DNA from: a virus
IMG/VR virus record: IMGVR_UViG_3300045988_145984
Location: 1 to 40,672 of that record
Reading direction: 5' to 3' (one strand)
DNA: 40,672 nt
Below the pieces are notes generated by a model that saw only the letters and a program-made list of their open reading frames with translations, had not been told where the DNA came from and did no database searches. Of the stretch, positions 12,787 to 34,721 are shown piece after piece; within the stretch, counting starts at the first letter, position 1, and each line of letters starts with the position of its first letter. Made by a program: the position numbers and the translations under genes.

Positions 12787-12791
12787 CCAAT

Positions 12792-12806
12792 GGGGCCCAT
12801 GGCCCC
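12792..12806 (+). terminator. Short GC hairpin GGGGCC-cat-GGCCCC after the head genes
   Basis: 6-bp stem with a 3-nt loop and a weak T tract. It could attenuate transcription after the capsid operon. Confidence 0.3.
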
Positions 12807-12871
12807 TTCATGCGGCGTGGGTAGGCCCACACGTTGGTTCAAGCCCAGCGCACCGCACTATTGGAGGTTTT

Positions 12872-13252: not shown

Positions 13253-13253
13253 T

Positions 13254-14975: not shown

Positions 14976-16021
14976 TGGCCTTCACCGGTTTTGACTTGCC
15001 CGACATTGGCAATTCCAATCTGGACAGTGCAGCCGAGCGCAGGCAGATATTGGAATACCTGTTCCAGCTCACAAAGCAGCTCCGCTATACCCTAAATAAC
15101 CTCGGCAAAGAAAACCTCTCCGATGAGCTGAATAGCACCATACATGAAGCGTTGAGGTCAGCCGTTTCAGTCGAGCGCATTATCAGGAACGTCGAAGGCA
15201 GCGTATCCATGATACAACAGACCGCCAATTCCATAAAGCTCGAAGTGGCAACAAAGGTCGATGAGAATGAAATCATATCAAAAATCAACCAGACCTCTGA
15301 AAGCATACTTATCCAGGCAAACCGGCTCAACCTGAGCGGCTACGTCACCATAAACTCCCTGAAAGCAGGCGGCACTACCACCATTGACGGCGGCAGGATA
15401 ACGACCGGCACAGTAGCCGCTGCCCGGATTGATGTGAACAATCTTTATGTGAAACATCTGAACGGTGCAGACGGTACATTCACCGGCTCCCTGAGCGCTG
15501 CAAGCGGAACGTTTACCGAACTAACCGCATCCAATGGCGCAGTGAAGTTCACTGGTAATAATATCAATATTTGCGGCGTTGAAATTGGTTATGTGAGTTA
15601 CTATTCGCAAGTGTGCGTTGTGCCTCCAGCACATCAGACCGGCAACGTTGGCACAGGAAGCCTCGCGTGGGATCAGTGCGTCGCAAAAAATCTGTACAGC
15701 AGCGGGGGTGGCGTCAATTCATATTCCATGCGGAAATTGAAGAAAGATATACTGAACTACCCTTATGACCCTACGGCGGTAGACCGCTTGCAGCCAGTCA
15801 CATACATAATGCGAAATGACGACACAAACACCATCCATCTCGGTCTTATCGCTGACGATGTACGTGAAGTGGAGCCGTTACTTGTAAGTAGCTTTCAAGA
15901 CGAGAGTATGCCCGGTTCGGTTCTGACATTGGATTACAGCAGGGTATCCGTGCTTCTGATAAACGAAATTAAGGCTTTGCGTAAGCGCGTAAGCAGCTTG
16001 GAAGGGAGATTTGCATCATGA
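14975..16021 (+). CDS. Tail fibre/spike protein with a C-terminal Peptidase_S74 intramolecular chaperone domain
   Basis: NSYSMRKLKKDI...LQPVTYIMRNDD..IHLGLIADDVREVEPLLV...LDYSRVSVLLINEIKALRKRVSSLE matches the endosialidase-chaperone autoprocessing domain. The ATG overlaps the previous TGA. Confidence 0.75.
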   Translation: MAFTGFDLPDIGNSNLDSAAERRQILEYLFQLTKQLRYTLNNLGKENLSDELNSTIHEALRSAVSVERIIRNVEGSVSMIQQTANSIKLEVATKVDENEIISKINQTSESILIQANRLNLSGYVTINSLKAGGTTTIDGGRITTGTVAAARIDVNNLYVKHLNGADGTFTGSLSAASGTFTELTASNGAVKFTGNNINICGVEIGYVSYYSQVCVVPPAHQTGNVGTGSLAWDQCVAKNLYSSGGGVNSYSMRKLKKDILNYPYDPTAVDRLQPVTYIMRNDDTNTIHLGLIADDVREVEPLLVSSFQDESMPGSVLTLDYSRVSVLLINEIKALRKRVSSLEGRFAS

Positions 16022-16206
16022 CTAAACATATCCAAAAGCTAATGGATGCCCTGGCCTGCCTGGACGCTGTTTCCGTGACCGGCAGGAATAACAGAATGAA
16101 TATGCTGCTCGCGGAGCAGCACATAGCCGACGTCGCACAAGAGCTCACTGCGGCAGAGACAGCAAAGAAAAAAGATAAGGAGGCGGCTGACAATGGCAAC
16201 GTATAA
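16018..16206 (+). CDS. Hypothetical protein
   Basis: ATGA coupling to the previous CDS; 62 aa. Confidence 0.45.
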   Translation: MTKHIQKLMDALACLDAVSVTGRNNRMNMLLAEQHIADVAQELTAAETAKKKDKEAADNGNV

Positions 16207-17626
16207 GAAAGGCTCCCGCAGCGATGAGGTAAAAAGGATACAGGAAGCCCTCGGGATAAAAGCAGACGGTATATACGGCTCGCAGACAGAACGGGCGGTT
16301 CGCAGTTATCAGCAGCAGAACGGCCTTAAGGTTGATGGTATCGTCGGGAATAACACATGGGGCAGCCTCTTCAGGGGCGGCTCCGGCGGCTTTGATTGGA
16401 GCGGCGGCGTCAACACCGGCTCTGCATCCGGCAGTTATAGCAGCCAACGCAAGACCGCCGACTGGCTTTCTCAATATGAGACCGGGCGGCCTACATACTC
16501 GCCCTCCCAGGCGGTTAACGATGCGGCGAATATGCTTGCAGACTATGAGCGCAACCGCCCCGCCGCCTTCAAGAGCCGCTATGATGACAGGATACAAAGC
16601 CTGTTAGACCAGATTCTCAATCGCGGCCCATTTGAATATGATTTCAATGCCGACCCACTATATCAGCAGTATAAAGACCAATATACCCAGCAAGGCAAAA
16701 TTGCAATGATGGACACCATGGGACAGGCAGCGGCGTTGACCGGTGGATATGGCAGCTCCTACGGCTCCGTGGCGGGGCAGCAGGCGTATCAGGGTTATTT
16801 GCAGCAGCTCAATAACGTAATACCCGAGCTTAGGGATGCTGCATTCTCAATGTACCAAGCAGAGGGCGATAACATGCGTTCCAAGCTCGGCGTACTTAGC
16901 GGCCTTGATGATACCGATTACGGCAGATACCGCGACACCGTAAGCGACTATTACAACGACCTCAACTACTACTACAACAAGTATAACGATATGTCCGAAG
17001 CGGATTATAATCGCTATCTTAATGATGCTGCCGCCTGGGAGAACGACAGGGCATATTGGTACAACAAAGCGCAGGACGAGCAGACGCAAGCCAACTGGCA
17101 AGCCGAGTATGACATGGCCGCGGCAAAGGCCGGATACGGCGGTTCCGGCTCAGGTAGATCCAGCGGCAGAGGATACAATAACGGCTCTCTCACATCTGCA
17201 CAGATCAGGCAGTTGCAAGCCCTGTTGGGCGTCGCCGCCGATGGCAAATACGGTTCTAAATCCATGGCCGCTGCCGGTGGGTTAGATGCCGACGCAGCAT
17301 GGGCAAAGTATTTCGGCGGGCGTGGCGGCTCCGGCAGCGACAAACTGTCCGAAAGCGATTTCAATCGCAGCTCTGCTATGCGGTCAAAGTACGGCACATA
17401 TTCCAATTACCTGAATGGTGGAACCGGCAGAACCGGCAGCGGCGAGCCCAGCGTATATAACAACGTCAGGCATGACGCTAAGGGCAACATCAAGAGCATA
17501 CACATGGGCAATGGCTATATAAGCCTGGATGAATTCGACAGGTATCTTGCCCAGGGAAAAATCAAAGAAGTTCACATGCCCAACGGCAAGGTCAGATATG
17601 AATGGGCACGGCAAGGTCAGATATGA
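16193..17626 (+). CDS. Virion-associated protein with peptidoglycan-binding (PG_binding_1) repeats
   Basis: N-terminal GSRSDEVKRIQEALGIKADGIYGSQTERAVRSYQQQNGLKVDGIVGNNTW and a second degenerate copy LTSAQIRQLQALLGVAADGKYGSKS. The centre is Y/N/D-rich. Confidence 0.7.
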   Translation: MATYKKGSRSDEVKRIQEALGIKADGIYGSQTERAVRSYQQQNGLKVDGIVGNNTWGSLFRGGSGGFDWSGGVNTGSASGSYSSQRKTADWLSQYETGRPTYSPSQAVNDAANMLADYERNRPAAFKSRYDDRIQSLLDQILNRGPFEYDFNADPLYQQYKDQYTQQGKIAMMDTMGQAAALTGGYGSSYGSVAGQQAYQGYLQQLNNVIPELRDAAFSMYQAEGDNMRSKLGVLSGLDDTDYGRYRDTVSDYYNDLNYYYNKYNDMSEADYNRYLNDAAAWENDRAYWYNKAQDEQTQANWQAEYDMAAAKAGYGGSGSGRSSGRGYNNGSLTSAQIRQLQALLGVAADGKYGSKSMAAAGGLDADAAWAKYFGGRGGSGSDKLSESDFNRSSAMRSKYGTYSNYLNGGTGRTGSGEPSVYNNVRHDAKGNIKSIHMGNGYISLDEFDRYLAQGKIKEVHMPNGKVRYEWARQGQI

Positions 17627-17652
17627 ACGAGCATAGCGAGGAGGGTTAATTT

Positions 17653-20600
17653 ATGGCGAAAGAATCTCTATACGCTCACGCTCAAAAGGTCATGAAAAAG
17701 AAGGAGATGGACGATGCCGGCAATGCACCCCGCCCTTCTGATTCTTCACAGAGCCGCGATAGCTCCGAAGCATCTAAGGGAAGGCAATCCCTCTATTCCC
17801 ATGCACAGAAGTTCGTAACTAAGCGCGAAGAGTATAAGCCGTCGGCGGAATATCAGCGGTTGCAGCAGCGCCCCACACCGAAGCGCAGCGTCACGACATC
17901 GACGTATGAAGACGCAGCCGCACGGCTCCTTTCCGGTAATAATACTGGCAAGGCCAAGTTTGGTAATTCATGGGACAGGTACTTGGAGCTTTCCCACAAG
18001 GACACCCTTACCGCCGAAGAAAGGGCAGAGGCCAAAGCAGCGCGAAAGAATATTGAATCGGCCTATGGTGCCGCCGGCAAATATCAGCAGGATCTTCTCC
18101 TTGCTGATATCCCGCAGGAGGTCATGGACGTATACCGCGACCTGGGCCTTAAGGCTGACGCTGCAACCGGCGTTGCAATGGGCTTCTTGGATGCCCTCGG
18201 CGTGGACTGGCTATCCGATAAGGTCGCAGACGCCATGCACAGCGATTCCCCGCGTATGCAGTCCCAGCTTGCACGGGCTAAGGCCGCCCAAGGCACGGCG
18301 TTTGGCGTTGGCAATGTTGCAGGAAATTTGTATTCCATGCTCGGCATCAATCAGCTTGTCGGCGCTGGAGCAAAAGCCGTCCCCGCTCTTTCCAAGCTCC
18401 CAAAATATGCCCAGACTGCCATAAAGGGCGCGGCTACCTACGGAATAAAGGGGGCTTATTCCGGCCTCACCAATACGCAGACCAAGGAGGAATGGGACAG
18501 GCGCCAACAGCTTGCAGCAGAGTATTACGCTGAGCAGGGTATTGACTACCAGCCTATTGAGTATAGCACCTGGCAACAGGTCGGTAATATCGCCCAGTCC
18601 TTCGGCCTCGGCGCTCTTAGCGGTGCGGCTGGCAGCGTTGCAGGCGATTTTGTGGGCGACCTCGGTAAAGCTGTTCTTGTTAAACTCGGTTGGCAAAAAC
18701 CGCTTGCCGAAGTTATCCGTCAGGCTCTTGCCAGCACCGCTCACGCAGGCGCGAGCACAGCCTCCACATATTGGCTCTACCCAGAGGATATTAGGCCAAA
18801 CAAGGAAAAAATAGTTCAAGACCTTGCGCTATCCTTCCTTTTCTCTGCTGCTACGACCACTATAAGCACCATACAGGTATCGAAGCAGAACAAGGAATTC
18901 CTTAACGGCGCAATAAATAAAATGCGGAACGACTACCAGACTATTCTTAACTCAGACATGAGTAAGGAAGCACAGTTGGCAGGCATGGACGAGATTATTA
19001 AATATAACCAGACCATCCGCTCCGCACTGTCTCAAAACTACTATGCCGGGCAGCAGTCCACCATCAACGAACTTATTCGTTCCATGGATGCTATCGACGA
19101 GCAGATAAATATAATAAAAAACGGCGTTGCAGAAGGCACGGCAACGTCATCCCCTGCCTCGTCCCCGAATGGTATAAACGTTCCCAGCGGATACCTGCCC
19201 GGAGATAGTTTGCGTAAGGCAGCGGAAGAAGCCGCAGGACTGTCCCCTACCCCTCCCTCGCCCTCGGCTCCTATCGCGCCCGTAGAACCTCCTAAGGTAA
19301 GCGCGTCCGATATTATTCCTCCTGTTGTCACAGCGGAAACAAAGCCGGTTGCAACCGTCTTAAACGATGTCAACGAGCCGCCCGTTGATAATACCGAGGC
19401 TCACGACAATATCCTCGCCATCGTGGAGGATGCAGGAAAGAATAATACTCCCTATGATGTGGTGCTCAATACTGCCAACAGCAGCATAGACAACAACATT
19501 GTTACCGCCGACGAAGTACGGAGTAGATATGAGCAGGGATTGGCTGCCTATAACAAAACCACGCCTCCCGCCAAAGCTGATACCGGCGACAATAACGCCG
19601 TCACCGATATATCCGCCTTTGAAGAGGCTGGCTTTAAGCACTGGCAGAAGGACGACAAGGACAGGCTTTATATCAGCATGTCTAAGCTCGGCCTGTCCAA
19701 CGAGGTCAAAGACATCAAGGGGCGCGTGAAAGTGTGGCTGGATGTGCCCACAGGCGAGGTGCAGGCGACAAAGGACACTCCGAACTCGGTTATTGAAGCT
19801 GCTCAAAAGCTGGTTGACAGCGTACAGGGGAAGGCTGACGTTGCGGAAAATATAAGCACCGCGGAAAAACCGCCTGTTTACGGCAGCGACATTGCCCAGG
19901 CTCTTGAGCATATAAGCAGGATTAAGTACGACGGGCTGATATATTCGGTATCCGGTCAGGTCAATGGGTACTATACCAGCATTACCCGCGACGATTCCCG
20001 GGCGGATGGAATGATATCCAATGACCGTTCCACTATCTACCGCGGCGGTCCGTTTGCCACCCGCAAGGAGGCTGCTGCGGATATCGCAGGTGTTTATGAT
20101 AACAATTTTGCAAATAATACAGGCAGTTCGCCTACTCCGGCATTGCAGGCCGAAGCTGCTCTTGCTACAATGACCTTAGAGGAGCAGGGCGCAATCAGGC
20201 AGTATAAGAGCGGCAGCGATTCATACATGCTCAACGAAAAGCTGTATTCCGGCGCGGCATTGTCCGAAAACGAAAAAAAACTTGCCGACAATCTGGACAA
20301 GGCCCTCGATAAGCTGCCCAACTACAAGGGCACCACTTATAGGGTTCTGAGCTTTGACCGGCAGGGCAAAGAGGCTTACGACGCCTTTATCGCGCGGCAT
20401 GTGCCAGATATGCCTGTGAACTATGGCGCATATACCTCGTCCTCCAAAACGCTGGATGGCTATGATATCGACTGTGCCTTAAAGGTTAAGGTTGAAATTG
20501 ATGGTTTTTCCGGCAAAGATGTTTCGCAGGGCTTCGGGCTCGAAACGGAAAATGAGGTTTTATACGGAAGAACGGTTGACTACATTACCAAATCTGTAGA

Positions 20601-23600
20601 AACCACACAAGACGGCGTAACAGTTATCAGGATAAAGGAGGCCAATCTCAATGACGAAGGTATTCTCGCCGGACGAGAAAAATCAGTGGACGGCTCCGCT
20701 CAGGGCCAGAACACCCAAGTGCGGGCTGTGCAAGAGGTGGAGGGGAGCAAACGAGCAGAACAGGCCGGTGTGCGAGGCGTTCCCGAACGGGATACCCAGA
20801 GCGGTATTCAAGGAGGAAGTGGATCACTTCAAGGAGAACTATCCGGGGGACAACGGAATGCTCGGAATACCGAAGGAGAGTTAGGAGGACAAACACATGG
20901 CAGCACTCAGAAGCGTTCTGACGAAGGAGTTTATGAAGGACAAAATGCCCTTGCCCCACTACGGGGAGATGGCAGAGAGGTACTACCGGGAGTTCTGCAA
21001 ACCGAGCTACCGGTCTCTGGCAGCGAAGGGGCCGGAGCACGTTTATCAGTACTTCGAGAAGCTGGGAATGAAGGCACTCGACGAGCAGACCGAAATGATG
21101 CAGCAGGGAGTAGCCGAGGACGGAGCCTGGGAAATCGTCAAGGAGTGGCTGTTCCCGAGGGGCGAGGAGAACATGAAGTAGGGCTTGAGCAGGAAGCAAA
21201 GGCTGAAATAGAACGCACCGTGACAGAGAAGCCCAAGGGGGCCAACTTTGTCATAGGTGAAAAGCTCAACCTTCCCGCGGGTGAAAAAGCCCGTTATAAG
21301 GCTAATGTAGCCGCTATCAAAATCGTTAAAAACCTGATAGCTGAAAATCGGTATGCAACCGCAGAGGAACAGGAAGCCCTCTCCAAGTACGTTGGGTGGG
21401 GCGGCCTCTCCTCTGCGTTTGATGCAAAAAAAGAGGGCTGGTCAAAAGAGTATGGCGAGCTGCAAGCACTGCTTTCGCCAGATGAATACAAGTCCGCCCG
21501 GGCAAGCACACTCAATGCCCATTATACGAGCATAGACGTTATCCGCGCCATGTACGAGGGACTTAGACACCTGGGCTTCCAAGGCGGCAGAATGCTCGAA
21601 CCCTCCGGCGGTATCGGTCACTTCATGGGCGCTATGCCTGCCGATATGCAAGGCACGGTCAAGTCCTGGACGATGGTTGAGCTGGATGACATCACCGGTC
21701 ACATTGCAAAATACCTCTATCCTAACAACGATGTGCGTATAGAGGGCTTTGAAAAGGCAAAGATACCCAACAATTACATGGACGTCGCCATAGGCAACGT
21801 GCCTTTTGGCAACTATGCTATCACAGACAAAACCTACCCCGGCACTGTTACTTCGGCAATCCACAACTACTTCTTTGCGAAGTCGCTTGACAAGGTGCGC
21901 CCGGGCGGTCTTGTGACGTTCATAACCTCGCGGTATACGATGGACGCATACGACGACAGGGTACGTAAATACCTGATGGACAACGCCGACCTTTTGGGGG
22001 CTATCCGCCTGCCGGACACCGCTTTCAAGAGCAACGCCGGAACAGAAGTAGTCACTGACATAATAGTGCTGCGCAAAAGGGCTGCCTTCACTCCCTATAA
22101 GGGTGAAGCGTTCAGCGAAGCGAGATATACGCTTATGGGGCGCGGCGGCACCTATGTCAACGAGTACTTTGCCAATCATCCCGAAATGGTTCTTGGAACC
22201 CCGGAAATGAGCGGTTCTATGTACGGCAAGGACGGACTGACCTACAAGGCCCTCAAAGGCGACTTGAACAAGCAGATAATAAGCGCATTCAAGAATATTA
22301 CCGGTAAGATGGAGTATCCAAAGCGCCCCACCGTGGAGAAGGTCAACCGGGACGCTGCCATAGCGGAAGCGAAAGGCAAGGAAGGCTCCCTCGTCGCAAA
22401 GGGCAACAAGATATACAAAATAAACGATGGTCAGCTTGTAGAGCACAAGACTACCGAAAAGCAGGCGGCCACAACCGCGAAGATCCTCTCCATCCGCGAC
22501 ACTGCCCGCGGGCTGCTGAATATGCAGCTTCAGAGTGCGAGTGAGATGGATATAAAAGCAGCTCGCTCTAAGCTGAATAAGGCATACGACGCATTTGTCA
22601 AGCAGCATGGATTTATCAATGCGCCCGGGAACAAGCGGTTATACTCAGATGATGTTGATGCTCCTTTCATCACTTCGCTCGAAAATTACGATGCAAAGGC
22701 GAAAATCGGCCGCAAGGCTGATATCTTCTCCAAGAACACCGTCTCCCCCCGCAGGACCATTACCCACGCCGACAGCGCGATAGATGCGCTCATAGTGTCC
22801 GTCAACGAAACGGGCGGCGTGGATATTCAGCGAATTGCGGAATTGACCGGAAATAGTGTCGATGCCGTTTCTCGTGAACTGCTGGATGCGGAGCTCGTGT
22901 ATAAGAACCGTGACGGCGGTTATGAAACCGCCGAGCAGTATTTGTCCGGCAACGTAAAGGCAAAGCTGCGTGATGCAGAAGATCTTCTCCCCGCCGATAA
23001 GGATTACCAGCGCAATATTGACGCACTGAAGAAAATCATCCCGGCGGATATTCCGTATCACGATATATTCGTACAGCCCGGTTCTACTTGGATACCCCTA
23101 AGCGTGTACTCGGATTTTGTTTCTCACATGCTCAATGTGTACAACGGCGGATATAGGCCGAAATTCAAGGTTTCCTATTCCGCCTTGACGGGCGACTATA
23201 TAGTGCAGATAATCGATAGCTATGTAAAACGCTCCGTAGAAAACACAGCCACATGGGGAACCTACGACAAGTCGTTTGCAGAACTTTTCAGCGCATTGCT
23301 GAACAATCGGCGCATTGTCGTATCCCATAAGGACGCAGAAGGGCGCTCCTATGTAGACAAGGCAGCCACCATTGCCGCTCAGGAAAAGGCCGAGGCCATA
23401 AAAGCCGAGTTTCAAAACTGGATATGGCAGGATGAAGCGCGACGCGATACCCTCGCCCACCTGTACAATGAAACCTTCAACAACACCGTTACCCCTAAAT
23501 ATAACGGCGCAAACCTCACCGTAGACGGTATAAGTGCGGCCAAGCCGCTCCGAGCCCATCAAAAGGACGTGGTTCAGCGTATAATTGCCTCCGGCGGTAA

Positions 23601-26600
23601 TACGTTGATAGCACACAAGGTAGGCGCAGGCAAAACCGCGGAAATGGCGGCGGCAGCCATGAAACTGCGCCAGCTCGGTGTGGTCAAAAAGCCCATGTTC
23701 GTTGTGCCGAAGTCCGTGCTTGCACAGTGGGGGCAGGAATTCATATCCTTCTTCCCCAATGCGAAAATACTTCTCCCGGGAGAGCAGGATTTTACCGCTA
23801 AGAGGCGCCGCGAATTTATGAATAAGGTCGCAACGGGTGACTACGATGCTATCATCGTATCGCAGGAGAACTTTTCCTCCATACCAGTTTCAGCCGACAC
23901 CGAGTATCAGTTTGCCGTCCAGCAACTCACCGAGCTCGAAGCCGGCATTGAGATGGCTGTTCGCAACGGGCAGCGCAACGACCCGTCTGTAAAGCAGATG
24001 GAGAAAAAGAAAAAGCAGTTTGAAGCGAGACTCGAAAAGCTCAATTCTCTGCGTAAGGACGAGGGCAATATCTCTTTTGAAGAACTTGGCGTAGATTCCC
24101 TCTTTGTAGATGAGGCGCATTCATATAAAAACCTTTTCTACACGACCAACATGAACAACGTGTCCGGCCTCGGCAATAAGGACGGCGCGAAGCGCTCATA
24201 CGACCTGTACATGAAAGTACGATACTTACAGCAGCTAAACGGTGGCCGCGGTATCGTATTTGCCACGGCTACCCCCGTCATGAACAGCATGAGCGAAATG
24301 TATATCATGCAGAAATATCTGCAAAGTGACCTCCTTAAGCAGCGTGGCCTTGAAACATTCGACGCTTGGGCGAATATGTTCGGTGAAGTCGTCACCGTTA
24401 TGGAAATGAACCCCACCGGCAAGGGCTACCGCCAGAAGGAGAGCTTTTCCCGATTTAAGAATCTTGGTGAGCTTCAGCAGATGTTCCGCAGTTTTGCCGA
24501 CGTACTTACCGATATCCCCGGTCTTGAAATACCCAAAATAAAGGGCGGCAAACGTACCGTTATAGTCTCTCCTCCTTCGCAGTACCAGTTGGACTACATA
24601 GAACAGCTTGCCGAGCGAGCTGATAAACTGCGCGGCAGTAAAGTAGACGCAAAGGCCGACAACATGTTGAAGATTACCTCAGAAGGCCGTAAGCTGTCAT
24701 ACAGCCAGCGTATCATGGATCCGTCTCTCCCTTACGAAGAGGACGGCAAAATCATGAAGTGCATTAACAACGTATACGACATCTGGCAGCGCACAAAGAA
24801 GGACAAAATGGCTCAGCTCGTGTTCTGCGATAGCGCAACTCCAAAAGGTGATCAGCAGGCCGAAGCCGCATTATTCGCCGAAGATGCTGAGAATGTGTCC
24901 ATCTACGACGACATGAAGCGACAGCTTGTACTGCGCGGCATTCCCGCAAAGGAAATTGCCTTTATTCATGATGCCGATACCCAGGATAAAAAGAATCAGC
25001 TTTTTGATGATGTAAACGCTGGTAAAGTTCGTGTTCTCATCGGCAGCACCGGCAAGATGGGCGTCGGCATGAATGCTCAAAAGCGTCTCTACGCGCTCCA
25101 TCACCTTGACGCACCTTGGAGGCCGGGCGACATTGAACAGCGTGAGGGACGCATTCTGCGCCAAGGCAACGTCAATAAAGAGGTGGAAATATTCACCTAT
25201 GTAACCGAAAAAACCTTTGACGCCCGAATGTGGGATAATCTGGAGCGCAAAGCATCGTTCATAAACTCTATCATGAACGGAGACACAAACGCCAGGGAAG
25301 CCGAGGACGTAGGCGAAATGGTACTTTCGTTCGCAGAGATTAAATCTATCGCCTCTGGCAATCCGCTTATCATGGAGCAGTTCGAGGTGAACGCGGAGAT
25401 TGCAAAGCTCACTACGCTGAAGCGGCAACATTCAAAAGCCGTGGAGGAGGCTAAATTCCGGAAGTCTACCACCGAAGCTGCTATTGCAAAGGCTAAGAAT
25501 GCTCTGCCTAAAGCACAAAAGGATCTTGCGGCGAGAAAGGATATTAGCGGAGACAACTTTAGGATAACGGTATCCGGCGTTACTTTCACCAACAGGCAGG
25601 AAGCTGGTGACGCCATTATTTCAGCAGCACAGAATTTTGTAACCTCTGAAAGCTCAGATCAGCAGCGAGTTATCGGTAAAGTCGCAGGGTTTGACCTGCT
25701 TGTGAACCGCGACGGAGACGCAATCATCCGCGGGGAAGGCACCTACAACGCAAGCATTAAAATGGAAAATGCTGTTCGCACCACGCGGTCTATTGAATCT
25801 GCACTTCGCAGCATCGAAACGCGAGTACAAGTGCTGGAAGAAAATATTTCTACATGGCAGGATAATATTGCGAAGCTCGACTCGATAATCTCTACTCCCT
25901 TTGAACGCCAGAGTGATCTCAATAAAGCAATCGCCCGAAATAACGAAATAACAAACATTCTCAACCCCCCTGAGGCGGAGGCGGTGGTTGCTGACTATGA
26001 TGACGCAGAAACAGACACCATTCAAAGCATGTTTGGCGATTCCCCGGACGATAGCGATGTGCCACACGACAAGTGGAACACACAGCGCGTGGGGAGCAAC
26101 AGCAAAACAACCATGCGTATATCTGACATCATCGGGAAGATGCGCCACGACTTCGGCATACCTGTCGGAACTGGGCGTATGTCTCGGCGTGATGTGCTCG
26201 GGCAGTACAACACCCACGCCCACAGCATAAAAACGAGGATAGCAAACGACCTTCCCACCGTCGCACACGAGCTTGGTCATCATCTGGATAATGCATATCG
26301 CCTTACCAGCGAATTAAGCAAAGATCAGCAGGCCGAGCTTGTAGACCAGTTAAGCAGCGCGATGAAAGAAAAATATAAGCCCGGTGAGCTTAAGGCTGAG
26401 GGACTTGCGGAATTTGTGCGTAGATATATGCAAAATAAGGAGACTGCAAAGATTGATTACCCTCTGTTCTTCACGCATTTCCAAGCTGCGTTGTCTCCCG
26501 AAACGTTGGCTACGGTGGATGAATTTGCAGACGAGATAAACGCCTATTACTCTCTGGACGTGAATAGTGCTCAATCGTCTATACGTCCCATGAGCGAAGG

Positions 26601-29600
26601 GCCTAATGATTTCCGCACATTGAGTGAGAAATTCAGTGACAGTAAAGAGCGTTTTTATCAAGACTGGTTCGATTCGCTACATGCAATAAGGATGTTTGAT
26701 AAAGAGGCTGGTTCCTCGGTGTATATTGATGCAATCAATAGCGCGTACAGCGATTCCATTGCCGCCAGCGTCTTATTTACCGGCTATGTAGATGATGACG
26801 GCAGGCAAATTTCCGGTGGTTTACAGTCTGCTCTTGACGGTATAGACCTCAAAGACAAAAAGACCTATGCCGATTTCAATGAATACTTGGTAGTCCGGCA
26901 CGGCCCGGAGCGTCTGCAAGAGGGTATGCGCATATTCGCAGACGACCGAAAGAACTCTACATCGTGGATGGACACACGCCGCAACGAGCTCGAACGGCAG
27001 CACCCGGAATTCAGCGGAGCCGCAGAAAAGCTATATACATGGCAGCGAGACTTTTTGCATAATTGGGGTGTGAAATACGGCCTCGTTTCCAGGGTGAGTG
27101 CGGAAGAATGGGCTGATCGCTGGCCGAGCTATGTTCCCCTTAGCCGCGTCATGGAAAAGAGCAGATTGCGAGGTGGAACAAGGAGAAGTTTTGCAAATCA
27201 GGATAGCACCATCCGGCGCGCTCACGGTAGCGGACGCGAAATAATCAATCCCATTGAAAGCATCATCACCAATACGGTGAAGATGGTCAATGCAGCCATT
27301 AAGAACAAGGTTGCCCTTGACCTTGTTGACGCCGCGAAAAAGGAGGAGGGGCTCGGCTGGTTGGTAGAGCCCGGCACCCCGCCGATGAAGCGCCAAGTAA
27401 TCGACATGGCAGGAACTAAGCAGGCGCTTGAGAAGGGGATTCAAGAAAGCTCTATGGATGAAGATGCCAAAGAAACAGCCTATGGTATAATTGGTGAGCT
27501 CAATGACTATCTTGTGCAATTCAGCCGCGGAACAAAGGGCTTCGGCAACACAATAACTGTGCTGCGCAATGGCAAACCTGAATTCTGGAAGATAAACGAT
27601 CCTTTATTGCTGGAGTCGCTTACAAATATGTCGCCCCGTCAGGCCGGCGACTTTGCGCGAACCATAGGCACAATCAACCGGCTTATCACTAACAGCATCA
27701 CAGGATTAAACCTTGTTTGGTCGGTAGGGTCAAACACTGTACGTGACTTGGGTACGGCGTTTACATATTCTGAAAAGAGCCCCATTAAACTTGTAAAAGA
27801 GATATTCGCTTCTTACGCGCAGAACTTCCGCAAGCCTGATAAATGGTCGCCCTTCCACAAAGAGTATGTGGCCCTCGGCGGAGGACATGATTCCGCTTTT
27901 GCAACGGATAAGGATATGCCAGATCAAATTATAGGGCAAATGATGGGTGATTTCTGGAAGCACATAGGAAGAGACCCTGCAAAGATTGCCCCCCGTTTGT
28001 TCAATAACACGATAGGCGCCGGAATAGAATTTGTATCCGACATCATAGAAAGCGGCCCGCGTGAAGCAATATACGTCTTAAGCCGTAAGTCAGGACTTTC
28101 CCCCAGAGAAGCTATGTATGCTTCCCATGACATTACGGTGAACTTCAAGAGAGGAGGCATTAAGAGCAAGCAGCTCAACAGGTTTGTTCCGTTCTTCAAT
28201 GCCGGTATGCAGGGATTGGACAAAGAAGTCAGGTTCTTCACCGCCGAAGATGCCCCTCCAGAATTGAAGAAAAAGGTTATCACGGCTCGCCTTGCGCTGT
28301 ATATCGGAGCATATACCGCATTAGGCGCTTTGCAATGGCTCATAAATAGCCGCGACGAGAAATCCCGCAAATACTACGCGCAGCTTTCGACATACACCAA
28401 GAATAATTTCTGGTGCATCCCGGTATATAAGGATGGTGAGGCCACGGGCGAATTTATTACAATCCCCAAACCCCGAGAACTCGCAGCCCCGGCAAGCGCC
28501 ACGTCCGCCCTTCTCGAAAAGTACGCCAGTGGTAACGACGACGCCTTTCGTGACTTTGATGAGTACCTTACCGGCTCGTTCCTGCCAAACCTTGCAGATG
28601 ATGCGGCACAGGGCTTGATTGACCTGCTTCGCGGCGAAGCCACGCCGAAAGACGTCGGGGCGGACTTATTAGGCAACTTCGGTATAGCCGGTATAGCGGC
28701 ATACATGATGGCAAACCGCGACTTTCTTGGCAGGCCAATAGAAAGCGCTGCCTACACCGGTGAAAAGGCAACTCACTATAATGAACGTACCTCGAAGATT
28801 GCCAAGGTTGTCGGTGAAGCCTTTAATTGGAGCCCCATAATGATAGACTACTTTGGCAAAAATGTGTTTGGTGGGTTCTGGAAATTCCAGCAGGCATTAT
28901 TCCCTGTAAATGATGAGGCGCGTGATTTCTCGCTCGGCCTGAAAAATACATACTGGCGCGACAGCCAATATTCAACCGACCTTATCAACACAATGTATTC
29001 TCTCAGGGATGCTGCCAAAACCGCAAAGGATACCTACCCGGCTGATATGGACAAGGCCATTGCTTACAGCGAGAGCAATACAATGACCACGTTCTATTCG
29101 CGTTACAACAAGCTGGCTAAGGATAATCCGAACCGCAATACGCGGCAGATAGTGCTTGATATGATAAACGACTTCAACCGTTCTTTCGGCAGCGACGTAA
29201 GAAGCTACGCGCAGCAAAAGGTTGATGCAGCGGTGAGAAAGGCCGGGGACACGGAAATAATGCCCAATGTCATGCAGACCTTCATAACCGACGATAACAG
29301 CAAGCGCTTCGAACTGACCGCCGAGCAATATGTGGAGTATCAGGGCAAGTTCAATAATCTCTACTGGCAGTATGTCACCGCCGTTGCGGATCAGGGCGAG
29401 GTAGCTATACGGCAGGCGAAGAAACGAGCGAAGAATGAGGCTGACGCCTATATGCTCAAGTTGCTGGGCGGTCACTCCAAGGCCGGGGTAGCTTACGCAG
29501 CTCAAAGCAGCGCGGGTATATCAGCTTCGGACGACCTGCTGTATCAGGCCGCGTTGGATGTAGCAAGAGAGGGCGGTCTTAAAAAGCAGGAGGTATATGA

Positions 29601-29931
29601 CGTCCTTGACCGCATGAGTATTCCAGATAGCCAAAAAGCGGTGTTGTTTGACGGTACTGGAAACTACTCCGGCGCGAGCAATATCTACTACACCGCCGAT
29701 GAGCTTAACAGCTGGATTTATGAGCAGCAGCGAGAAGGACGGAAGGACGGCGATATTGCCAAGAGCATTTCCAATGTGTACAGGGAACTTTATCAGGCCG
29801 CATACGAGGTTGCCGACTATCAGAAAATGAGCGATATAGAGACAAAACTATTCGCTCTCGACCTCACTGACAAGAAAGGAAAGCCCTACTGGACACAAAA
29901 GAAATTCGATGAATGGCTCAAGCCCAAGTAA
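17653..29931 (+). CDS. Giant polyvalent (DarB-like) protein, 4,092 aa: N-terminal Gly-zipper/hydrophobic region, ART, N6-adenine DNA MTase, SNF2/DEAH helicase, HExxH metallopeptidase, and a long C-terminal region with hydrophobic segments
   Basis: Single open frame with SD gaggaggg. Domain motifs are listed as separate features. It sits where podovirus ejection/internal virion proteins are usually encoded. Confidence 0.8.
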   Translation: MAKESLYAHAQKVMKKKEMDDAGNAPRPSDSSQSRDSSEASKGRQSLYSHAQKFVTKREEYKPSAEYQRLQQRPTPKRSVTTSTYEDAAARLLSGNNTGKAKFGNSWDRYLELSHKDTLTAEERAEAKAARKNIESAYGAAGKYQQDLLLADIPQEVMDVYRDLGLKADAATGVAMGFLDALGVDWLSDKVADAMHSDSPRMQSQLARAKAAQGTAFGVGNVAGNLYSMLGINQLVGAGAKAVPALSKLPKYAQTAIKGAATYGIKGAYSGLTNTQTKEEWDRRQQLAAEYYAEQGIDYQPIEYSTWQQVGNIAQSFGLGALSGAAGSVAGDFVGDLGKAVLVKLGWQKPLAEVIRQALASTAHAGASTASTYWLYPEDIRPNKEKIVQDLALSFLFSAATTTISTIQVSKQNKEFLNGAINKMRNDYQTILNSDMSKEAQLAGMDEIIKYNQTIRSALSQNYYAGQQSTINELIRSMDAIDEQINIIKNGVAEGTATSSPASSPNGINVPSGYLPGDSLRKAAEEAAGLSPTPPSPSAPIAPVEPPKVSASDIIPPVVTAETKPVATVLNDVNEPPVDNTEAHDNILAIVEDAGKNNTPYDVVLNTANSSIDNNIVTADEVRSRYEQGLAAYNKTTPPAKADTGDNNAVTDISAFEEAGFKHWQKDDKDRLYISMSKLGLSNEVKDIKGRVKVWLDVPTGEVQATKDTPNSVIEAAQKLVDSVQGKADVAENISTAEKPPVYGSDIAQALEHISRIKYDGLIYSVSGQVNGYYTSITRDDSRADGMISNDRSTIYRGGPFATRKEAAADIAGVYDNNFANNTGSSPTPALQAEAALATMTLEEQGAIRQYKSGSDSYMLNEKLYSGAALSENEKKLADNLDKALDKLPNYKGTTYRVLSFDRQGKEAYDAFIARHVPDMPVNYGAYTSSSKTLDGYDIDCALKVKVEIDGFSGKDVSQGFGLETENEVLYGRTVDYITKSVETTQDGVTVIRIKEANLNDEGILAGREKSVDGSAQGQNTQVRAVQEVEGSKRAEQAGVRGVPERDTQSGIQGGSGSLQGELSGGQRNARNTEGELGGQTHGSTQKRSDEGVYEGQNALAPLRGDGREVLPGVLQTELPVSGSEGAGARLSVLREAGNEGTRRADRNDAAGSSRGRSLGNRQGVAVPEGRGEHEVGLEQEAKAEIERTVTEKPKGANFVIGEKLNLPAGEKARYKANVAAIKIVKNLIAENRYATAEEQEALSKYVGWGGLSSAFDAKKEGWSKEYGELQALLSPDEYKSARASTLNAHYTSIDVIRAMYEGLRHLGFQGGRMLEPSGGIGHFMGAMPADMQGTVKSWTMVELDDITGHIAKYLYPNNDVRIEGFEKAKIPNNYMDVAIGNVPFGNYAITDKTYPGTVTSAIHNYFFAKSLDKVRPGGLVTFITSRYTMDAYDDRVRKYLMDNADLLGAIRLPDTAFKSNAGTEVVTDIIVLRKRAAFTPYKGEAFSEARYTLMGRGGTYVNEYFANHPEMVLGTPEMSGSMYGKDGLTYKALKGDLNKQIISAFKNITGKMEYPKRPTVEKVNRDAAIAEAKGKEGSLVAKGNKIYKINDGQLVEHKTTEKQAATTAKILSIRDTARGLLNMQLQSASEMDIKAARSKLNKAYDAFVKQHGFINAPGNKRLYSDDVDAPFITSLENYDAKAKIGRKADIFSKNTVSPRRTITHADSAIDALIVSVNETGGVDIQRIAELTGNSVDAVSRELLDAELVYKNRDGGYETAEQYLSGNVKAKLRDAEDLLPADKDYQRNIDALKKIIPADIPYHDIFVQPGSTWIPLSVYSDFVSHMLNVYNGGYRPKFKVSYSALTGDYIVQIIDSYVKRSVENTATWGTYDKSFAELFSALLNNRRIVVSHKDAEGRSYVDKAATIAAQEKAEAIKAEFQNWIWQDEARRDTLAHLYNETFNNTVTPKYNGANLTVDGISAAKPLRAHQKDVVQRIIASGGNTLIAHKVGAGKTAEMAAAAMKLRQLGVVKKPMFVVPKSVLAQWGQEFISFFPNAKILLPGEQDFTAKRRREFMNKVATGDYDAIIVSQENFSSIPVSADTEYQFAVQQLTELEAGIEMAVRNGQRNDPSVKQMEKKKKQFEARLEKLNSLRKDEGNISFEELGVDSLFVDEAHSYKNLFYTTNMNNVSGLGNKDGAKRSYDLYMKVRYLQQLNGGRGIVFATATPVMNSMSEMYIMQKYLQSDLLKQRGLETFDAWANMFGEVVTVMEMNPTGKGYRQKESFSRFKNLGELQQMFRSFADVLTDIPGLEIPKIKGGKRTVIVSPPSQYQLDYIEQLAERADKLRGSKVDAKADNMLKITSEGRKLSYSQRIMDPSLPYEEDGKIMKCINNVYDIWQRTKKDKMAQLVFCDSATPKGDQQAEAALFAEDAENVSIYDDMKRQLVLRGIPAKEIAFIHDADTQDKKNQLFDDVNAGKVRVLIGSTGKMGVGMNAQKRLYALHHLDAPWRPGDIEQREGRILRQGNVNKEVEIFTYVTEKTFDARMWDNLERKASFINSIMNGDTNAREAEDVGEMVLSFAEIKSIASGNPLIMEQFEVNAEIAKLTTLKRQHSKAVEEAKFRKSTTEAAIAKAKNALPKAQKDLAARKDISGDNFRITVSGVTFTNRQEAGDAIISAAQNFVTSESSDQQRVIGKVAGFDLLVNRDGDAIIRGEGTYNASIKMENAVRTTRSIESALRSIETRVQVLEENISTWQDNIAKLDSIISTPFERQSDLNKAIARNNEITNILNPPEAEAVVADYDDAETDTIQSMFGDSPDDSDVPHDKWNTQRVGSNSKTTMRISDIIGKMRHDFGIPVGTGRMSRRDVLGQYNTHAHSIKTRIANDLPTVAHELGHHLDNAYRLTSELSKDQQAELVDQLSSAMKEKYKPGELKAEGLAEFVRRYMQNKETAKIDYPLFFTHFQAALSPETLATVDEFADEINAYYSLDVNSAQSSIRPMSEGPNDFRTLSEKFSDSKERFYQDWFDSLHAIRMFDKEAGSSVYIDAINSAYSDSIAASVLFTGYVDDDGRQISGGLQSALDGIDLKDKKTYADFNEYLVVRHGPERLQEGMRIFADDRKNSTSWMDTRRNELERQHPEFSGAAEKLYTWQRDFLHNWGVKYGLVSRVSAEEWADRWPSYVPLSRVMEKSRLRGGTRRSFANQDSTIRRAHGSGREIINPIESIITNTVKMVNAAIKNKVALDLVDAAKKEEGLGWLVEPGTPPMKRQVIDMAGTKQALEKGIQESSMDEDAKETAYGIIGELNDYLVQFSRGTKGFGNTITVLRNGKPEFWKINDPLLLESLTNMSPRQAGDFARTIGTINRLITNSITGLNLVWSVGSNTVRDLGTAFTYSEKSPIKLVKEIFASYAQNFRKPDKWSPFHKEYVALGGGHDSAFATDKDMPDQIIGQMMGDFWKHIGRDPAKIAPRLFNNTIGAGIEFVSDIIESGPREAIYVLSRKSGLSPREAMYASHDITVNFKRGGIKSKQLNRFVPFFNAGMQGLDKEVRFFTAEDAPPELKKKVITARLALYIGAYTALGALQWLINSRDEKSRKYYAQLSTYTKNNFWCIPVYKDGEATGEFITIPKPRELAAPASATSALLEKYASGNDDAFRDFDEYLTGSFLPNLADDAAQGLIDLLRGEATPKDVGADLLGNFGIAGIAAYMMANRDFLGRPIESAAYTGEKATHYNERTSKIAKVVGEAFNWSPIMIDYFGKNVFGGFWKFQQALFPVNDEARDFSLGLKNTYWRDSQYSTDLINTMYSLRDAAKTAKDTYPADMDKAIAYSESNTMTTFYSRYNKLAKDNPNRNTRQIVLDMINDFNRSFGSDVRSYAQQKVDAAVRKAGDTEIMPNVMQTFITDDNSKRFELTAEQYVEYQGKFNNLYWQYVTAVADQGEVAIRQAKKRAKNEADAYMLKLLGGHSKAGVAYAAQSSAGISASDDLLYQAALDVAREGGLKKQEVYDVLDRMSIPDSQKAVLFDGTGNYSGASNIYYTADELNSWIYEQQREGRKDGDIAKSISNVYRELYQAAYEVADYQKMSDIETKLFALDLTDKKGKPYWTQKKFDEWLKPK
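20176..20570 (+). other. ADP-ribosyltransferase (R-S-E class) domain within the giant ORF
   Basis: TYR(20341)VLSF, YTSSS (20431..20445) and ETENE (20542..20556), preceded by LEEQGAIRQYKSGSDSYMLNEKLYSG. This is the order and spacing seen in C3/VIP2-type ARTs. Confidence 0.7.
20651..20884 (+). CDS. Embedded shifted-frame ORF 1 (77 aa, Cys-containing) inside the giant ORF
   Basis: SD aaggagg (20634..20640) then ATG. CGLCKRW...PVCEAFPNGIPRAVFKEEVDHFKENYPGDNG reads like a folded small protein. All 6 Arg codons are AGG/AGA. Confidence 0.45.
   Translation: MTKVFSPDEKNQWTAPLRARTPKCGLCKRWRGANEQNRPVCEAFPNGIPRAVFKEEVDHFKENYPGDNGMLGIPKES
20897..21181 (+). CDS. Embedded shifted-frame ORF 2 (94 aa, helical, TnpV-like by eye) inside the giant ORF
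   Basis: TAGGAGGA, then 7 nt, then ATG; the stop of ORF 1 lies inside this SD. LPHYGEMAERYYREFCKPSYRSL...YQYFEKLGMKALDEQTEMMQQG...AWEIVKEWLFP. Confidence 0.5.
   Translation: MAALRSVLTKEFMKDKMPLPHYGEMAERYYREFCKPSYRSLAAKGPEHVYQYFEKLGMKALDEQTEMMQQGVAEDGAWEIVKEWLFPRGEENMK
21232..22080 (+). other. N6-adenine DNA methyltransferase domain within the giant ORF
   Basis: Motif I LEPSGGIGHF (21595..21624) and motif IV GNVPFG (NVPF at 21796..21807). The lead-in YVGWGGLSSAFD is typical of the methylase-helicase proteins of phages and ICEs. Confidence 0.8.
23548..25170 (+). other. SNF2/DEAD-like helicase domain within the giant ORF
   Basis: Walker A GAGKT (23623..23637), DEAH (24109..24120), and helicase-C motifs GSTGKMGVGMNAQ and QREGRILRQGN. 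Confidence 0.85.
26266..26280 (+). other. HExxH zinc-metallopeptidase motif (HELGH) within the giant ORF
   Basis: The TVAHELGHHLDN context was read directly. Confidence 0.55.
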
Positions 29932-29943: not shown

Positions 29944-29970
29944 AAAAAGCGGGGAGCATTTCCCCGCTTT
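29944..29970. terminator. Bidirectional rho-independent terminator AAAAA-GCGGGGA-gcatt-TCCCCGC-TTT
   Basis: 7-bp GC stem flanked by an A-run and a T-run, between the convergent giant ORF and the minus-strand membrane protein gene. Confidence 0.8.
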
Positions 29971-30874: not shown

Positions 30875-31117
30875 ATGAAAATATACGACTACAACGGCAA
30901 GAAGAACATATCCGGCAAGCGAATACGTGAGTGCAGGCGCAAGGTCGGCATGACGCAGGCAGAGCTTGCGGCGCAGCTCCAGCTATCCGGCATTACCCTT
31001 GAAAATAACTGCGTGAGCAGGATTGAAAGCGGCGCAAGGTTCGTCGCCGATTATGAACTCCTCGTGCTGTCCGAGATATTCGGCGTAACCATGGAATATC
31101 TGGTTGGCAAAGAATAG
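30875..31117 (+). CDS. XRE-family HTH transcriptional regulator (Cro/CI-like)
   Basis: ISGKRIRECRRKVGMTQAELAAQLQLSGITLENNCVSRIESGARFVADYELLVLSEIFGV is a canonical HTH_3 domain. It is divergent from the YHYH operon. Confidence 0.85.
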   Translation: MKIYDYNGKKNISGKRIRECRRKVGMTQAELAAQLQLSGITLENNCVSRIESGARFVADYELLVLSEIFGVTMEYLVGKE

Positions 31118-31132
31118 TCGCCAGCATATTAG

Positions 31133-31155
31133 GCATCCTCGCGGATGCTTTTTTT
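31133..31155 (+). terminator. Rho-independent terminator GCATCC-tcgc-GGATGC followed by T7
   Basis: 6-bp stem plus a TTTTTTT run, 16 nt after the XRE stop codon. Confidence 0.75.
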
Positions 31156-31159
31156 ATTT

Positions 31160-31201
31160 TTGGTCAAAAACGGGGAGAAATGACATAAACCGGCCTGTTA
31201 C
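31160..31201 (+). promoter_or_regulatory. Conserved motif copy B: TTGGTCAAAAACGGGGAGAAAT ... CCTGTTAC upstream of the tail-fibre/DGR operon
   Basis: Matches 5621..5655. The only differences are a 1-nt indel in block 1 and the spacer length between the two blocks. Confidence 0.5.
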
Positions 31202-31226
31202 CATCGTGGAAAAAGGAGGCGATGGT

Positions 31227-34590: not shown

Positions 34591-34721
34591 GTTCCGCGAC
34601 GAACTGGTGGCTTCGCTCGCCTAATTCCAGCAACGGCAACAACTTCTGTGCTGTGAACAATTCAGGTGCAGCCAACAACAACAACGCCAGCAACTCCTAC
34701 GGCGTCGCCTTCGGATTCTGC
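34591..34721 (+). repeat. DGR template repeat (TR)
   Basis: Non-coding copy of the VR sequence, with AAC/AAT wherever the VRs vary (...gccaacaacaacaacgcc...). It lies between avd and the RT. Confidence 0.92.

Follow-up and report, generated by a model that had tools for sequence, protein, structure and literature searches.

A 4,092-residue polyvalent DarB-like protein with a two-part chassis and variable effector cargo in a podovirus-like phage genome

Results and Discussion

A single giant gene and its parts

The window analysed here is the complete IMG/VR virus record IMGVR_UViG_3300045988_145984, a stretch of 40,672 nucleotides (positions 1 to 40,672), in which a single open reading frame (ORF) at 17653..29931 encodes a protein of 4,092 amino acids (aa) that combines several enzymes. 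The window is a complete, circularly assembled genome, because an exact 55-nt direct repeat lies at both of its ends (1-55 = 40618-40672); its unique sequence therefore amounts to 40,617 bp, of which the giant gene takes up 30.2%. The parts of the gene and its flanking signals are listed below, from 5' to 3'; ART stands for ADP-ribosyltransferase and dN/dS for the ratio of nonsynonymous to synonymous substitution rates, here relative to the related phage contig L011.

17639..17646, plus strand: strong Shine-Dalgarno sequence GAGGAGGG, 6 nt 5' of the ATG, read from the sequence
17653..29931, plus strand: giant ORF, 4,092 aa and stop codon, no internal stop
17665..17706, plus strand: leader repeat copy 1, SLYAHAQKVMKKKE, aa 5-18
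17788..17829, plus strand: leader repeat copy 2, SLYSHAQKFVTKRE, aa 46-59
17938..19332, plus strand: N-terminal chassis module (Nmod), aa 96-560, all-helical and glycine/alanine-rich (G/A-rich), with invariant glycines; dN/dS 0.06
19423..20119, plus strand: mid region, aa 591-822, no Pfam match; dN/dS 0.19
20120..20865, plus strand: predicted effector swap slot, aa 823-1071, holding the ART cassette here and replaced in frame in L011
20140..20652, plus strand: predicted R-S-ExE ART, aa 830-1000 (PF03496), with catalytic residues R897 (20341-20343), S929/S931 in TSSS 928-931 (20434-20445) and E966-x-E968 (20548-20556) in ETENE 964-968 (20542-20556)
20866..21252, plus strand: low-complexity linker before the methyltransferase, G/R/E/S/Q-rich by composition
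21253..22242, plus strand: predicted N6-adenine DNA methyltransferase (phrog_10089, phrog_11801)
21595-21624, plus strand: methyltransferase motif I, LEPSGGIGHF, aa 1315-1324
21796-21807, plus strand: methyltransferase motif IV, NVPF, aa 1382-1385
23533..25572, plus strand: predicted SNF2/SF2 helicase (Pfam ResIII, SNF2-rel_dom and Helicase_C, all above cut-offs)
23623-23637, plus strand: helicase motif GAGKT, aa 1991-1995
24109-24120, plus strand: helicase motif DEAH, aa 2153-2156
25138-25170, plus strand: helicase motif VI, QREGRILRQGN, aa 2496-2506
25573..26142, plus strand: helical, coiled-coil-like spacer, aa 2641-2830, with only weak, sub-cut-off coiled-coil-type Pfam matches; dN/dS 0.19
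26143..26592, plus strand: predicted zincin metallopeptidase, first part of the C-terminal module, with HELGH aa 2872-2876 (26266-26280), D2879 and EGLAEF (26398-26415)
26593..28362, plus strand: C1 part of the C-terminal module, aa 2981-3570 (alignment A2)
28372..28902, plus strand: LPD38 core, aa 3574-3750 (Pfam PF18857, E = 1.1e-21, 78.3 bits against a cut-off of 27)
28903..29928, plus strand: C-terminal helical tail, aa 3751-4092, homologues ~43% identical up to aa 4021; included in the confident structural model
29946..29970, no strand assigned: bidirectional terminator-like hairpin with an 11-bp G+C-rich stem, AAAGCGGGGAGCATTTCCCCGCTTT, starting 15 nt past the stop codon

The region 17653..29931 is one genuine gene. 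A preliminary description of this DNA, made from the letters alone, had raised the prospect that the ORF might resolve into several genes on sequence correction, and single ORFs were found in two other assemblies instead: L011, a contig from an Acutalibacteraceae metagenome-assembled genome (MAG), encodes a protein of 4,074 aa, and L012, from an Oscillospiraceae MAG, one of 4,138 aa. The window protein and that of L011 are 90.8% identical over residues 1063-4090 and 79.8% over residues 1-827, and dN/dS between them lies at 0.04-0.33 in each of the twelve modules. The synonymous rate dS ranges from 0.04 to 1.6 among modules of the gene, a ~40-fold spread (LPD38 0.04, linker 0.11, Nmod and leader 1.3-1.6), which is compatible with the range expected from mosaic recombination within the gene. 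Promoter-like and terminator-like sites within the gene are no commoner than in shuffled sequence and give no evidence of internal transcription units.

Some observations favour the notion that misassembly or frameshifts have fused several genes into an artefactual single ORF. In L009 (ENA ERZ28761118 contig_2148, aligned to window positions 8950-22087), which is 95% identical in nucleotide sequence, the region is called as pieces of 295, 311, 159, 80 and 294 aa, and the two conserved ends of the protein, described below as chassis halves, are separate genes in an Oscillibacter prophage. However, the differences between L009 and the window include many single-base indels, which split a neighbouring gene as well and are the signature of long-read assembly noise, while the single ORFs of L011 and L012 come from independent assemblies, every module is under purifying selection and 4,092 stop-free sense codons at ~52% G+C are impossible by chance. 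We therefore consider such an artefact extremely improbable. Gene calls from L009-like assemblies (P0002, P0227, P0005, P0006, P0021) make the giant protein seem several small proteins.

The ADP-ribosyltransferase and the swap slot

The ART is assigned on sequence to the R-S-E clade (Alt/VIP2/Tre1 group, PF03496). Its own match to PF03496 is marginal (23.8 bits, cut-off 23.4), being obtained with a 180-aa query spanning aa 821-1000 and missed both by a 400-aa Pfam tile and by the full-length scan, but all 20 of the 20 ART family members match PF03496 (best E = 3.5e-15). A 200-aa single-sequence query aligns to Tre1 (6dre_B) with TYR, (S/T)xS and ExE in register (E = 0.004), and the family profile matches Tre1 (3e-17), Vis (9e-10), iota Ia (5e-7) and also CDTa; the R, S, S, E and E residues are invariant in the 20 family members. 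Vis is an arginine-specific ART, and the ExE form of the motif points to arginine as the acceptor here too. Tre1 (a Serratia proteamaculans type VI secretion ART, PDB 6DRE/6DRH), iota Ia, CDTa and Vis thus share with the window ART the same R / S-T-S / E-x-E signature, in register; Tre1 and the binary toxins are secreted toxins, whereas the window ART is embedded in a predicted phage virion protein and no immunity gene was seen.

In a blastn comparison, L011 and the window are collinear (79-88% identity) with a single exception, 20120-20865, where L011 4041-4762 substitutes 722 unrelated nt with sharp breakpoints and the reading frame kept. The sequences on either side of the slot, AADIAGVY[DN]NNFA ... 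NTEGEL, are conserved. The L011 insert has a weak Pfam match to MuF_C (PBECR-type; E = 8.6e-4, 19.8 bits, below the cut-off of 27.6). The linker that follows the slot aligns with a compositionally similar stretch of gp01 of Vibrio phage VvAW1 and with stretches 3' of the ART in homologues.

The DarB-type methyltransferase-helicase core

The next part of the protein matches the 'DarB-like antirestriction' family phrog_10089 over aa 995-2822 with E = 0. Within it, the Eco57I-type methylase Pfam match (8.5e-5) falls just under the cut-off, and searches with the helicase against the PDB gave weak matches to chromatin-remodeller structures (best E = 5e-4, 6ne3_W). With 130-235-aa tiles, no Pfam family was matched in the linker or in the region between methyltransferase and helicase. 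Motif IV reads NVPF in 9 of 9 gut-lineage homologues; VvAW1 gp01, which is 47% identical in the methyltransferase region, has NPPF.

The parallel to phage P1 DarB drawn in the preliminary description is borne out by tblastn matches to the darB genes of P1 (6e-20) and P7 (3e-20). P1 DarB, a capsid-packaged antirestriction protein of 2,255 aa, carries a homologous pair of methyltransferase and SF2 helicase (27% identity), but it aligns with only ~38% of the 1,631-aa core of the window protein, and its sharing of the ART, zincin and LPD38 parts was not seen in the searches run. The motifs quoted in the preliminary description, leader repeats and hydrophobic segments included, were each found where they had been placed, and the assignments of ART, methyltransferase-helicase and zincin hold in profile searches; judged from these residues, the ART, methyltransferase, helicase and zincin appear catalytically competent.

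The N-terminal leader, Nmod and mid region

The protein begins with a leader (aa 1-95, window 17653-17937) that holds two 14-residue repeats. This duplication, which had been pointed out beforehand as a short internal repeat, is non-random (z = 6.1, reached by 0 of 100 shuffles), and a two-copy motif of ~12 aa was found in 15 of the 38 homologues whose N-terminus is intact (p <= 0.01 for each in comparison with shuffles), with the copies ~24-63 residues apart (P0136, P0131, P0022, P0017, P0008, P0014 and others). The sequence of the motif differs among lineages, and the duplication itself is kept. The duplicated leader may be a bivalent packaging or capsid-targeting signal. The possibility that the repeats are cleavage sites of the Prp protease was rejected: they are unlike the NL[HR]LF/D motif (slash marking the cut) of capsid and scaffold N-termini, and the unrelated repeat sequences in homologues also counter it.

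Nmod has no Pfam family, as scanned with 400-aa and with 130-235-aa tiles, and its relatives came to light through an exhaustive phmmer search of 1.84 billion representatives, which returned 766 relatives and placed Nmod close to the start of many proteins of 2,000-4,500 aa. Among the 8,000 candidates that each considered, word-indexed searches with aa 1-1000 or aa 93-510 gave no match, or only two fragments from one close relative, and tblastn with aa 1-1000 against 50,697 phage records gave no match. The most conserved residues in the Nmod alignment (A4) are glycines in GxxxG-like runs. The Gly-zipper hydrophobic segments of the preliminary description thus stand as G/A-rich segments with conserved glycines, but their hydrophobicity is modest (19-residue Kyte-Doolittle mean <=1.5, exceeding 1.2 in only three regions), and transmembrane status is not established. 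The AlphaFold2 model of Nmod is all-helical and of low confidence (predicted local distance difference test, pLDDT, 62.9), so that the finding of nothing at E <= 1e-3 in a Foldseek search of this model against a PDB copy carries no meaning. The mid region, between Nmod and the slot, is common to P0015, P0075 and P0113.

The zincin and LPD38 C-terminal module

The HELGH motif noticed at first reading belongs to a zincin whose H2872, E2873, H2876, E2916 and E2920 are invariant in a 21-sequence alignment (A5); HE[x]GH is retained in nearly all of ~70 aligned homologues. The family profile reaches the catalytic domain of anthrax lethal factor (E = 0.007), with HExxH and ExxAE aligned, including the third ligand Glu, and more weakly PPEP-1, a Pro-Pro endopeptidase (0.1). 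A single-sequence PDB search with the zincin region returned nothing, only the family profile reaching lethal factor, and the Pfam MPTase-PolyVal model gave no match with 400-aa or 130-235-aa tiles. In the structural model, three β-strands (residues 18-41) are followed by a helix (47-62) bearing HELGH. On the alignments, the zincin opens the conserved C-terminal module instead of forming a cargo domain of its own.

The C-terminal ~1,200 aa, previously left unassigned and rated the least characterised part of the protein, contain the LPD38 match, and the whole region proved to be a conserved module that is known, though functionally uncharacterised. The module (1,262 aa) has 78 homologues, the best ~43% identical over 94% of its length. 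Its C1 part has invariant polar residues P3162, R3165, N3361, D3365 and E3466 (alignment A2), and hydrophobic segments lie at aa 3542-3563 and 3672-3688. In tblastn searches, C1-LPD38 matched 363 phage records, including Bcep22, DC1, Ralstonia and Stx phages, and it is also present in gp19 of Bacillus phage Pascal (1,672 aa), encoded in the tail block and lacking a DarB-type methyltransferase-helicase match. Structure prediction of the C-terminal third, which had been proposed as a check, gave a confident AlphaFold2 model of aa 2821-4020 (42-homologue alignment; pLDDT 82.6, predicted template modelling score 0.71). Foldseek matched this model to 79 viral predicted structures in BFVD, with best E-values down to 1e-31 over 1,000-1,250 columns; many of these correspond to the later segments of giant proteins that are split into chunks. 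Escherichia phage PTXU04 and Ralstonia phage Alix are represented among them, as are proteins with the descriptions RelA/SpoT, LT_GEWL (lysozyme-like) and type I restriction methylase. In the PDB copy, the only Foldseek hints were weak ones, to PprI (an IrrE-family zincin) and to Mycobacterium tuberculosis transcriptional regulators, with probabilities of 0.14-0.41. In alignment and model, the zincin and the following ~1,050 aa behave as a single conserved unit that greatly exceeds the 189 positions of the Pfam LPD38 model. Identity of the module with the encapsidation domain of the N4 virion RNA polymerase was considered and rejected (hhalign of A2 against N4 gp50 aa 2100-3500, probability 0.3%, E = 0.22).

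A two-part chassis flanking variable cargo

A module map of 150 relatives revealed that the N-terminal and C-terminal modules recur together while the middle varies. Examples of the cargo predicted between them are the following.

Window protein: R-S-E ART, then DarB-type methyltransferase and SNF2 helicase
P0001: R-S-E ART, then Strawberry-notch-type helicase
P0020: Strawberry-notch-type helicase
P0008: ART-PolyVal (H-Y-D type)
P0019, P0022 and P0131: DarB-type core without ART

In the Oscillibacter prophage the two halves are adjacent genes (756 and 1,390 aa) with no cargo between them, in a gene order like that of the window, the neighbours of 118, 652 and 423 aa matching the window genes starting at 12872, 13254 and 16193. 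In L008, a protein of 2,189 aa at the same gene position joins the C-terminal module to a different N-terminal half. Comparison at the sequence level thus shows a two-part chassis, made up of the leader and helical module (aa 1-560) and of the zincin and LPD38 module (aa 2831-4092, ~1,260 aa), flanking a variable cargo.

Gene neighbourhood

Genes around the giant gene were assigned by PHROG and Pfam scans as follows.

Start 5555, same strand as the giant gene: small terminase subunit
Start 6213, same strand as the giant gene: large terminase subunit
Start 7736: P22-type portal
9705-10115: Prp-type cysteine protease
10136-11122: scaffold-like protein
11156-12424: major capsid protein
Start 13254: 573-aa protein matching an 'internal virion protein' family
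Start 14972: fibre protein
16193-17626: 477-aa protein with a peptidoglycan-binding domain (PG_binding_1)
Start 17653, plus strand: giant gene
31104-32999: collagen-like tail-fibre gene
37182-38153: endolysin-type protein with peptidase and peptidoglycan-binding domain
38137-38877: endolysin-type protein with peptidoglycan-binding domain and NlpC/P60

The giant gene lies 3' of the terminase, portal, Prp protease, scaffold, capsid and 'internal virion protein'-family genes, with co-oriented tail-fibre genes on both sides; its strand is also that of the two terminase, portal, capsid and 'internal virion protein'-family genes. Neither tail tube nor sheath nor tape-measure families were matched among the 20 other ORFs scanned, in agreement with the earlier impression that such genes were lacking, and the gene layout appears podovirus-like. 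The host is probably a gut member of the Oscillospirales, because the relatives stem from Oscillibacter, Oscillospiraceae, Acutalibacteraceae and Clostridia assemblies and from human faecal viromes.

The window encodes three PG_binding_1 proteins (16193-17626, 37182-38153 and 38137-38877). The 477-aa one (16193-17626) lies directly upstream of the giant gene, a position kept by its L006 and L008 orthologues, and may be a virion-associated wall-binding or wall-degrading partner. The Prp-type protease gene (9705-10115) adjoins the scaffold-like and capsid genes, whose products carry an L27-like cleavage motif at their N-termini (LLMNLHLF/DG and YLRLNLRLF/DV, cut at the slash), which suggests that the capsid is processed by Prp in the Firmicutes style.

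Proposed packaging, ejection and mode of action

Taken together with what is known of its homologues, the giant protein is probably a phage-type polyvalent virion protein, a chassis with effector cargo that enters the host with the DNA; its packaging and ejection are read across from those homologues, and its targets and any processing are inferred as well. JC1 gp69, a Bcep22-like giant, is virion-associated, with 51 unique peptides detected by mass spectrometry of CsCl-purified virions (PMC9144972). The LPD38 protein gp47 of φ24B is abundant in virions and absent from the cryo-electron microscopy reconstruction, and its authors propose that it is an encapsidated ejection protein (bioRxiv 10.64898/2026.04.10.717836). 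The antirestriction activity of P1 DarB acts in cis (PMC5512222). The restriction that DarB counters is of type I. By analogy, the giant protein would be made late, together with the structural proteins, and its chassis would build it into the capsid or procapsid; at infection it would be ejected through the short tail, with the DNA or ahead of it. The methyltransferase-helicase could then act in cis on the entering genome and blunt restriction as P1 DarB does, the ART would modify a host protein, presumably at arginine given its ExE motif, with FtsZ as one candidate by analogy with Tre1, and the zincin might cut the polyprotein into working pieces, aid envelope crossing or act on a host target.

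An extension of this scheme takes the protein for a modular delivery platform, in which the conserved halves would be a capsid-anchoring and ejection apparatus and effectors would be exchanged in frame at a defined slot. Compatible with it are the difference between near-identical phages at the slot (ART here, MuF-C-like match in L011), the recurrence across the family of a two-copy leader motif whose sequence is not conserved, and a fold of ~1,050 aa that has no solved relative and could be a common vehicle in podoviruses infecting Proteobacteria and Firmicutes. We put this extension forward tentatively, as somewhat doubtful.

Several points weigh against a packaged and ejected polyvalent protein. 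Its presence in the particle is deduced from homologues and not from direct evidence, and identity to the proteomically verified homologues is only 20-26% in the C-terminal module and ~33% in the DarB core. P1 is a myovirus, and packaging of its DarB is stated to need DarA, Hdf and DdrA (Piya et al. 2017, as cited in PMC9144972); no DarA, Hdf or Ddr family turned up in PHROG scans of 20 neighbouring ORFs, which did not include a dedicated search. Methyltransferase motif IV is NVPF and not the canonical NPPF, though conserved in the lineage. A Kyte-Doolittle scan detected no strongly hydrophobic transmembrane helices, and the passage of a ~450-kDa protein through a podovirus channel lacks explanation. 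The Foldseek search of the C-terminal module model against the PDB copy gave nothing at E <= 1e-3 and hence no link to a known ejection machine, nor does the module show similarity to the encapsidation region of the N4 virion RNA polymerase.

The closest competing explanation holds that the protein is first of all a DNA-ejection machine, its end modules being essential pilot proteins that breach the wall and form a trans-envelope conduit, and its middle enzymes dispensable. This explanation overlaps the polyvalent-protein reading and shifts the essential function from counter-defence to genome delivery. It accords with the conservation of the end modules against a middle that varies or is missing, with the place of the gene where podoviruses keep their ejection-protein genes (after capsid and fibre genes and adjoining a peptidoglycan-binding-domain protein), with the occurrence of the module in Pascal gp19, in a tail gene block and without a DarB-type core, and with the role proposed for φ24B gp47 by its authors; the helical, glycine-rich and poorly predicted Nmod is compatible with a conformational change but is not evidence for one. 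On the other hand, neither the C-terminal nor the low-confidence N-terminal model resembles a solved structure in the PDB copy (Foldseek, E <= 1e-3; no named T7- or P22-type ejection protein was compared directly), clear transmembrane segments were not seen, Pfam scans matched no lytic transglycosylase or lysozyme domain in the giant protein, and the zincin is of the lethal-factor/Pro-Pro-endopeptidase type, which cleaves proteins and is not known as a peptidoglycan hydrolase. We regard this explanation as a serious contender that falls somewhat short of even chances. Alternatively, the protein might stay out of the particle and work late in the host cytoplasm, methylating progeny DNA ahead of its packaging and ADP-ribosylating host proteins within the infected cell. 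Methyltransferases and ARTs that are not packaged are common in phages, T4 ModA and ModB being examples (also PMC5512222), and the sequence holds no proof of packaging. This alternative is nevertheless unlikely: the methyltransferase is fused to a chassis of ~2,000 aa that is found free of enzymes in relatives at the same place in the virion block, homologues have been detected in virions, and the gene, placed last in a run of structural genes, is itself closed by a terminator.

Comparison with known systems

Proteins of this class were described as polyvalent proteins by Iyer, Burroughs, Anand, de Souza and Aravind (2017, PMC5512222), and the fit to that concept suggested in the preliminary description is supported by the presence of multiple effectors in one ORF, by LPD38 and by the late, virion-type gene context. 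As in the proteins of that survey, unrelated enzymes (ART, N6-adenine methyltransferase, SNF2 ATPase, zincin) are predicted in one giant polypeptide, an LPD domain is present (LPD38 being reported as phage-only; PMC5512222), and the gene lies among the late genes of a portal-terminase phage. The zincin likewise fits the phage-type metallopeptidase of Iyer et al., with an Asp three residues past HExxH and a downstream Glu (PMC5512222). The 2017 survey stated that R-S-E ARTs are absent from 'genuine' polyvalent proteins (PMC5512222); unlike the proteins surveyed, the window protein has an R-S-E ART of the Alt/VIP2/Tre1 group, and the exhaustive search shows that the combination is common in metagenomes. 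The Pfam LPD38 model, covering 177 aa, likewise differs from the conserved unit found here, which spans ~1,200 aa including the zincin, and Nmod has no Pfam counterpart.

Among podophages, DarB-like giants comprise Bcep22 gp75, JC1 gp69 (4,515 aa), VvAW1 gp01 (3,640 aa in a 38.7-kb genome) and a protein of Serratia phage Parlo (3,764 aa). The methyltransferase-helicase core recurs in VvAW1 gp01 (31% identity, with 2,918 positions aligned), the Bcep22-like proteins are ~33% identical in this core, and the VvAW1, Bcep22 and DC1 genes were also matched by tblastn with C-terminal regions. Like the window gene, these genes stand at the end of the virion gene block and take up a large share of a small genome, 22-28% in the descriptions of JC1, VvAW1 and Parlo (22.1% in JC1, PMC9144972; 10,923 of 38,682 bp, ~28%, in VvAW1). 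For Parlo and the Bcep22-like proteins an N-terminal lytic transglycosylase or acyltransferase has been reported, whereas the window protein has a different N-terminal module and the R-S-E ART; moreover, those phages belong with Proteobacteria, whereas related sequences of the window come from gut Oscillospirales MAGs (Acutalibacteraceae, Oscillospiraceae). The φ24B protein gp47 (2,811 aa) is a giant podovirus protein like that of the window, with LPD5, LPD1, LPD38 and a metallopeptidase; methyltransferase, helicase and ART are not among its reported domains. Stx-phage genes for an 'LPD5 domain-containing protein' match aa ~3300-3600 at ~25% identity (E = 2e-14), which is only part of the module. 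Prophages of gut Clostridia are already known to carry large LPD ORFs.

The class is thus already known, and the window protein is an incremental extension of it; specific to it are the R-S-E ART in a polyvalent protein, an N-terminal module without a Pfam family, the chassis-and-slot interpretation with its cassette swap, and the recurrent leader duplication. Giant DarB-like polyvalent proteins were described bioinformatically in 2017 and have been found in virions of a few proteobacterial podophages. The close relatives of this gut Oscillospirales phage now let their architecture be read as a two-part chassis with an exchangeable effector slot, and a confident model of the ~1,200-aa LPD38 module, which has no solved relative, now exists. 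To our knowledge, no structure has been solved for any of these proteins, nor has an ejection route been demonstrated or a target defined. If it is true that the chassis delivers arbitrary inserted domains, phages could be engineered to inject chosen proteins.

Other features of the genome

Compared by megablast with 50,697 phage records, a 25-kb portion of the window matched none of them. The genome carries a diversity-generating retroelement with two targets 28 kb apart: its template repeat lies at 34591-34721 and its reverse transcriptase at 34926-36053, and the variable repeats, at 33975-34105 (repeat 1) and 5332-5462 (repeat 2), are 131 nt long, as is the template. Nearly all mismatches between the repeats fall at template adenines, and the targets are the C-terminal DUF6273 domains of the ORFs at 33008-34111 and 4725-5468. 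A transposase ORF of 380 aa stands at the genome end (39430-40572; phrog_4646, 5.5e-137), and no other integrase families were matched among the ORFs scanned; the lysis genes of the related contig L005 are followed by a 344-aa gene that has HTH_38 and rve domains. The collagen-like tail-fibre gene contains four copies of a 275-nt repeat (73-100% identical) at 31758-32908.

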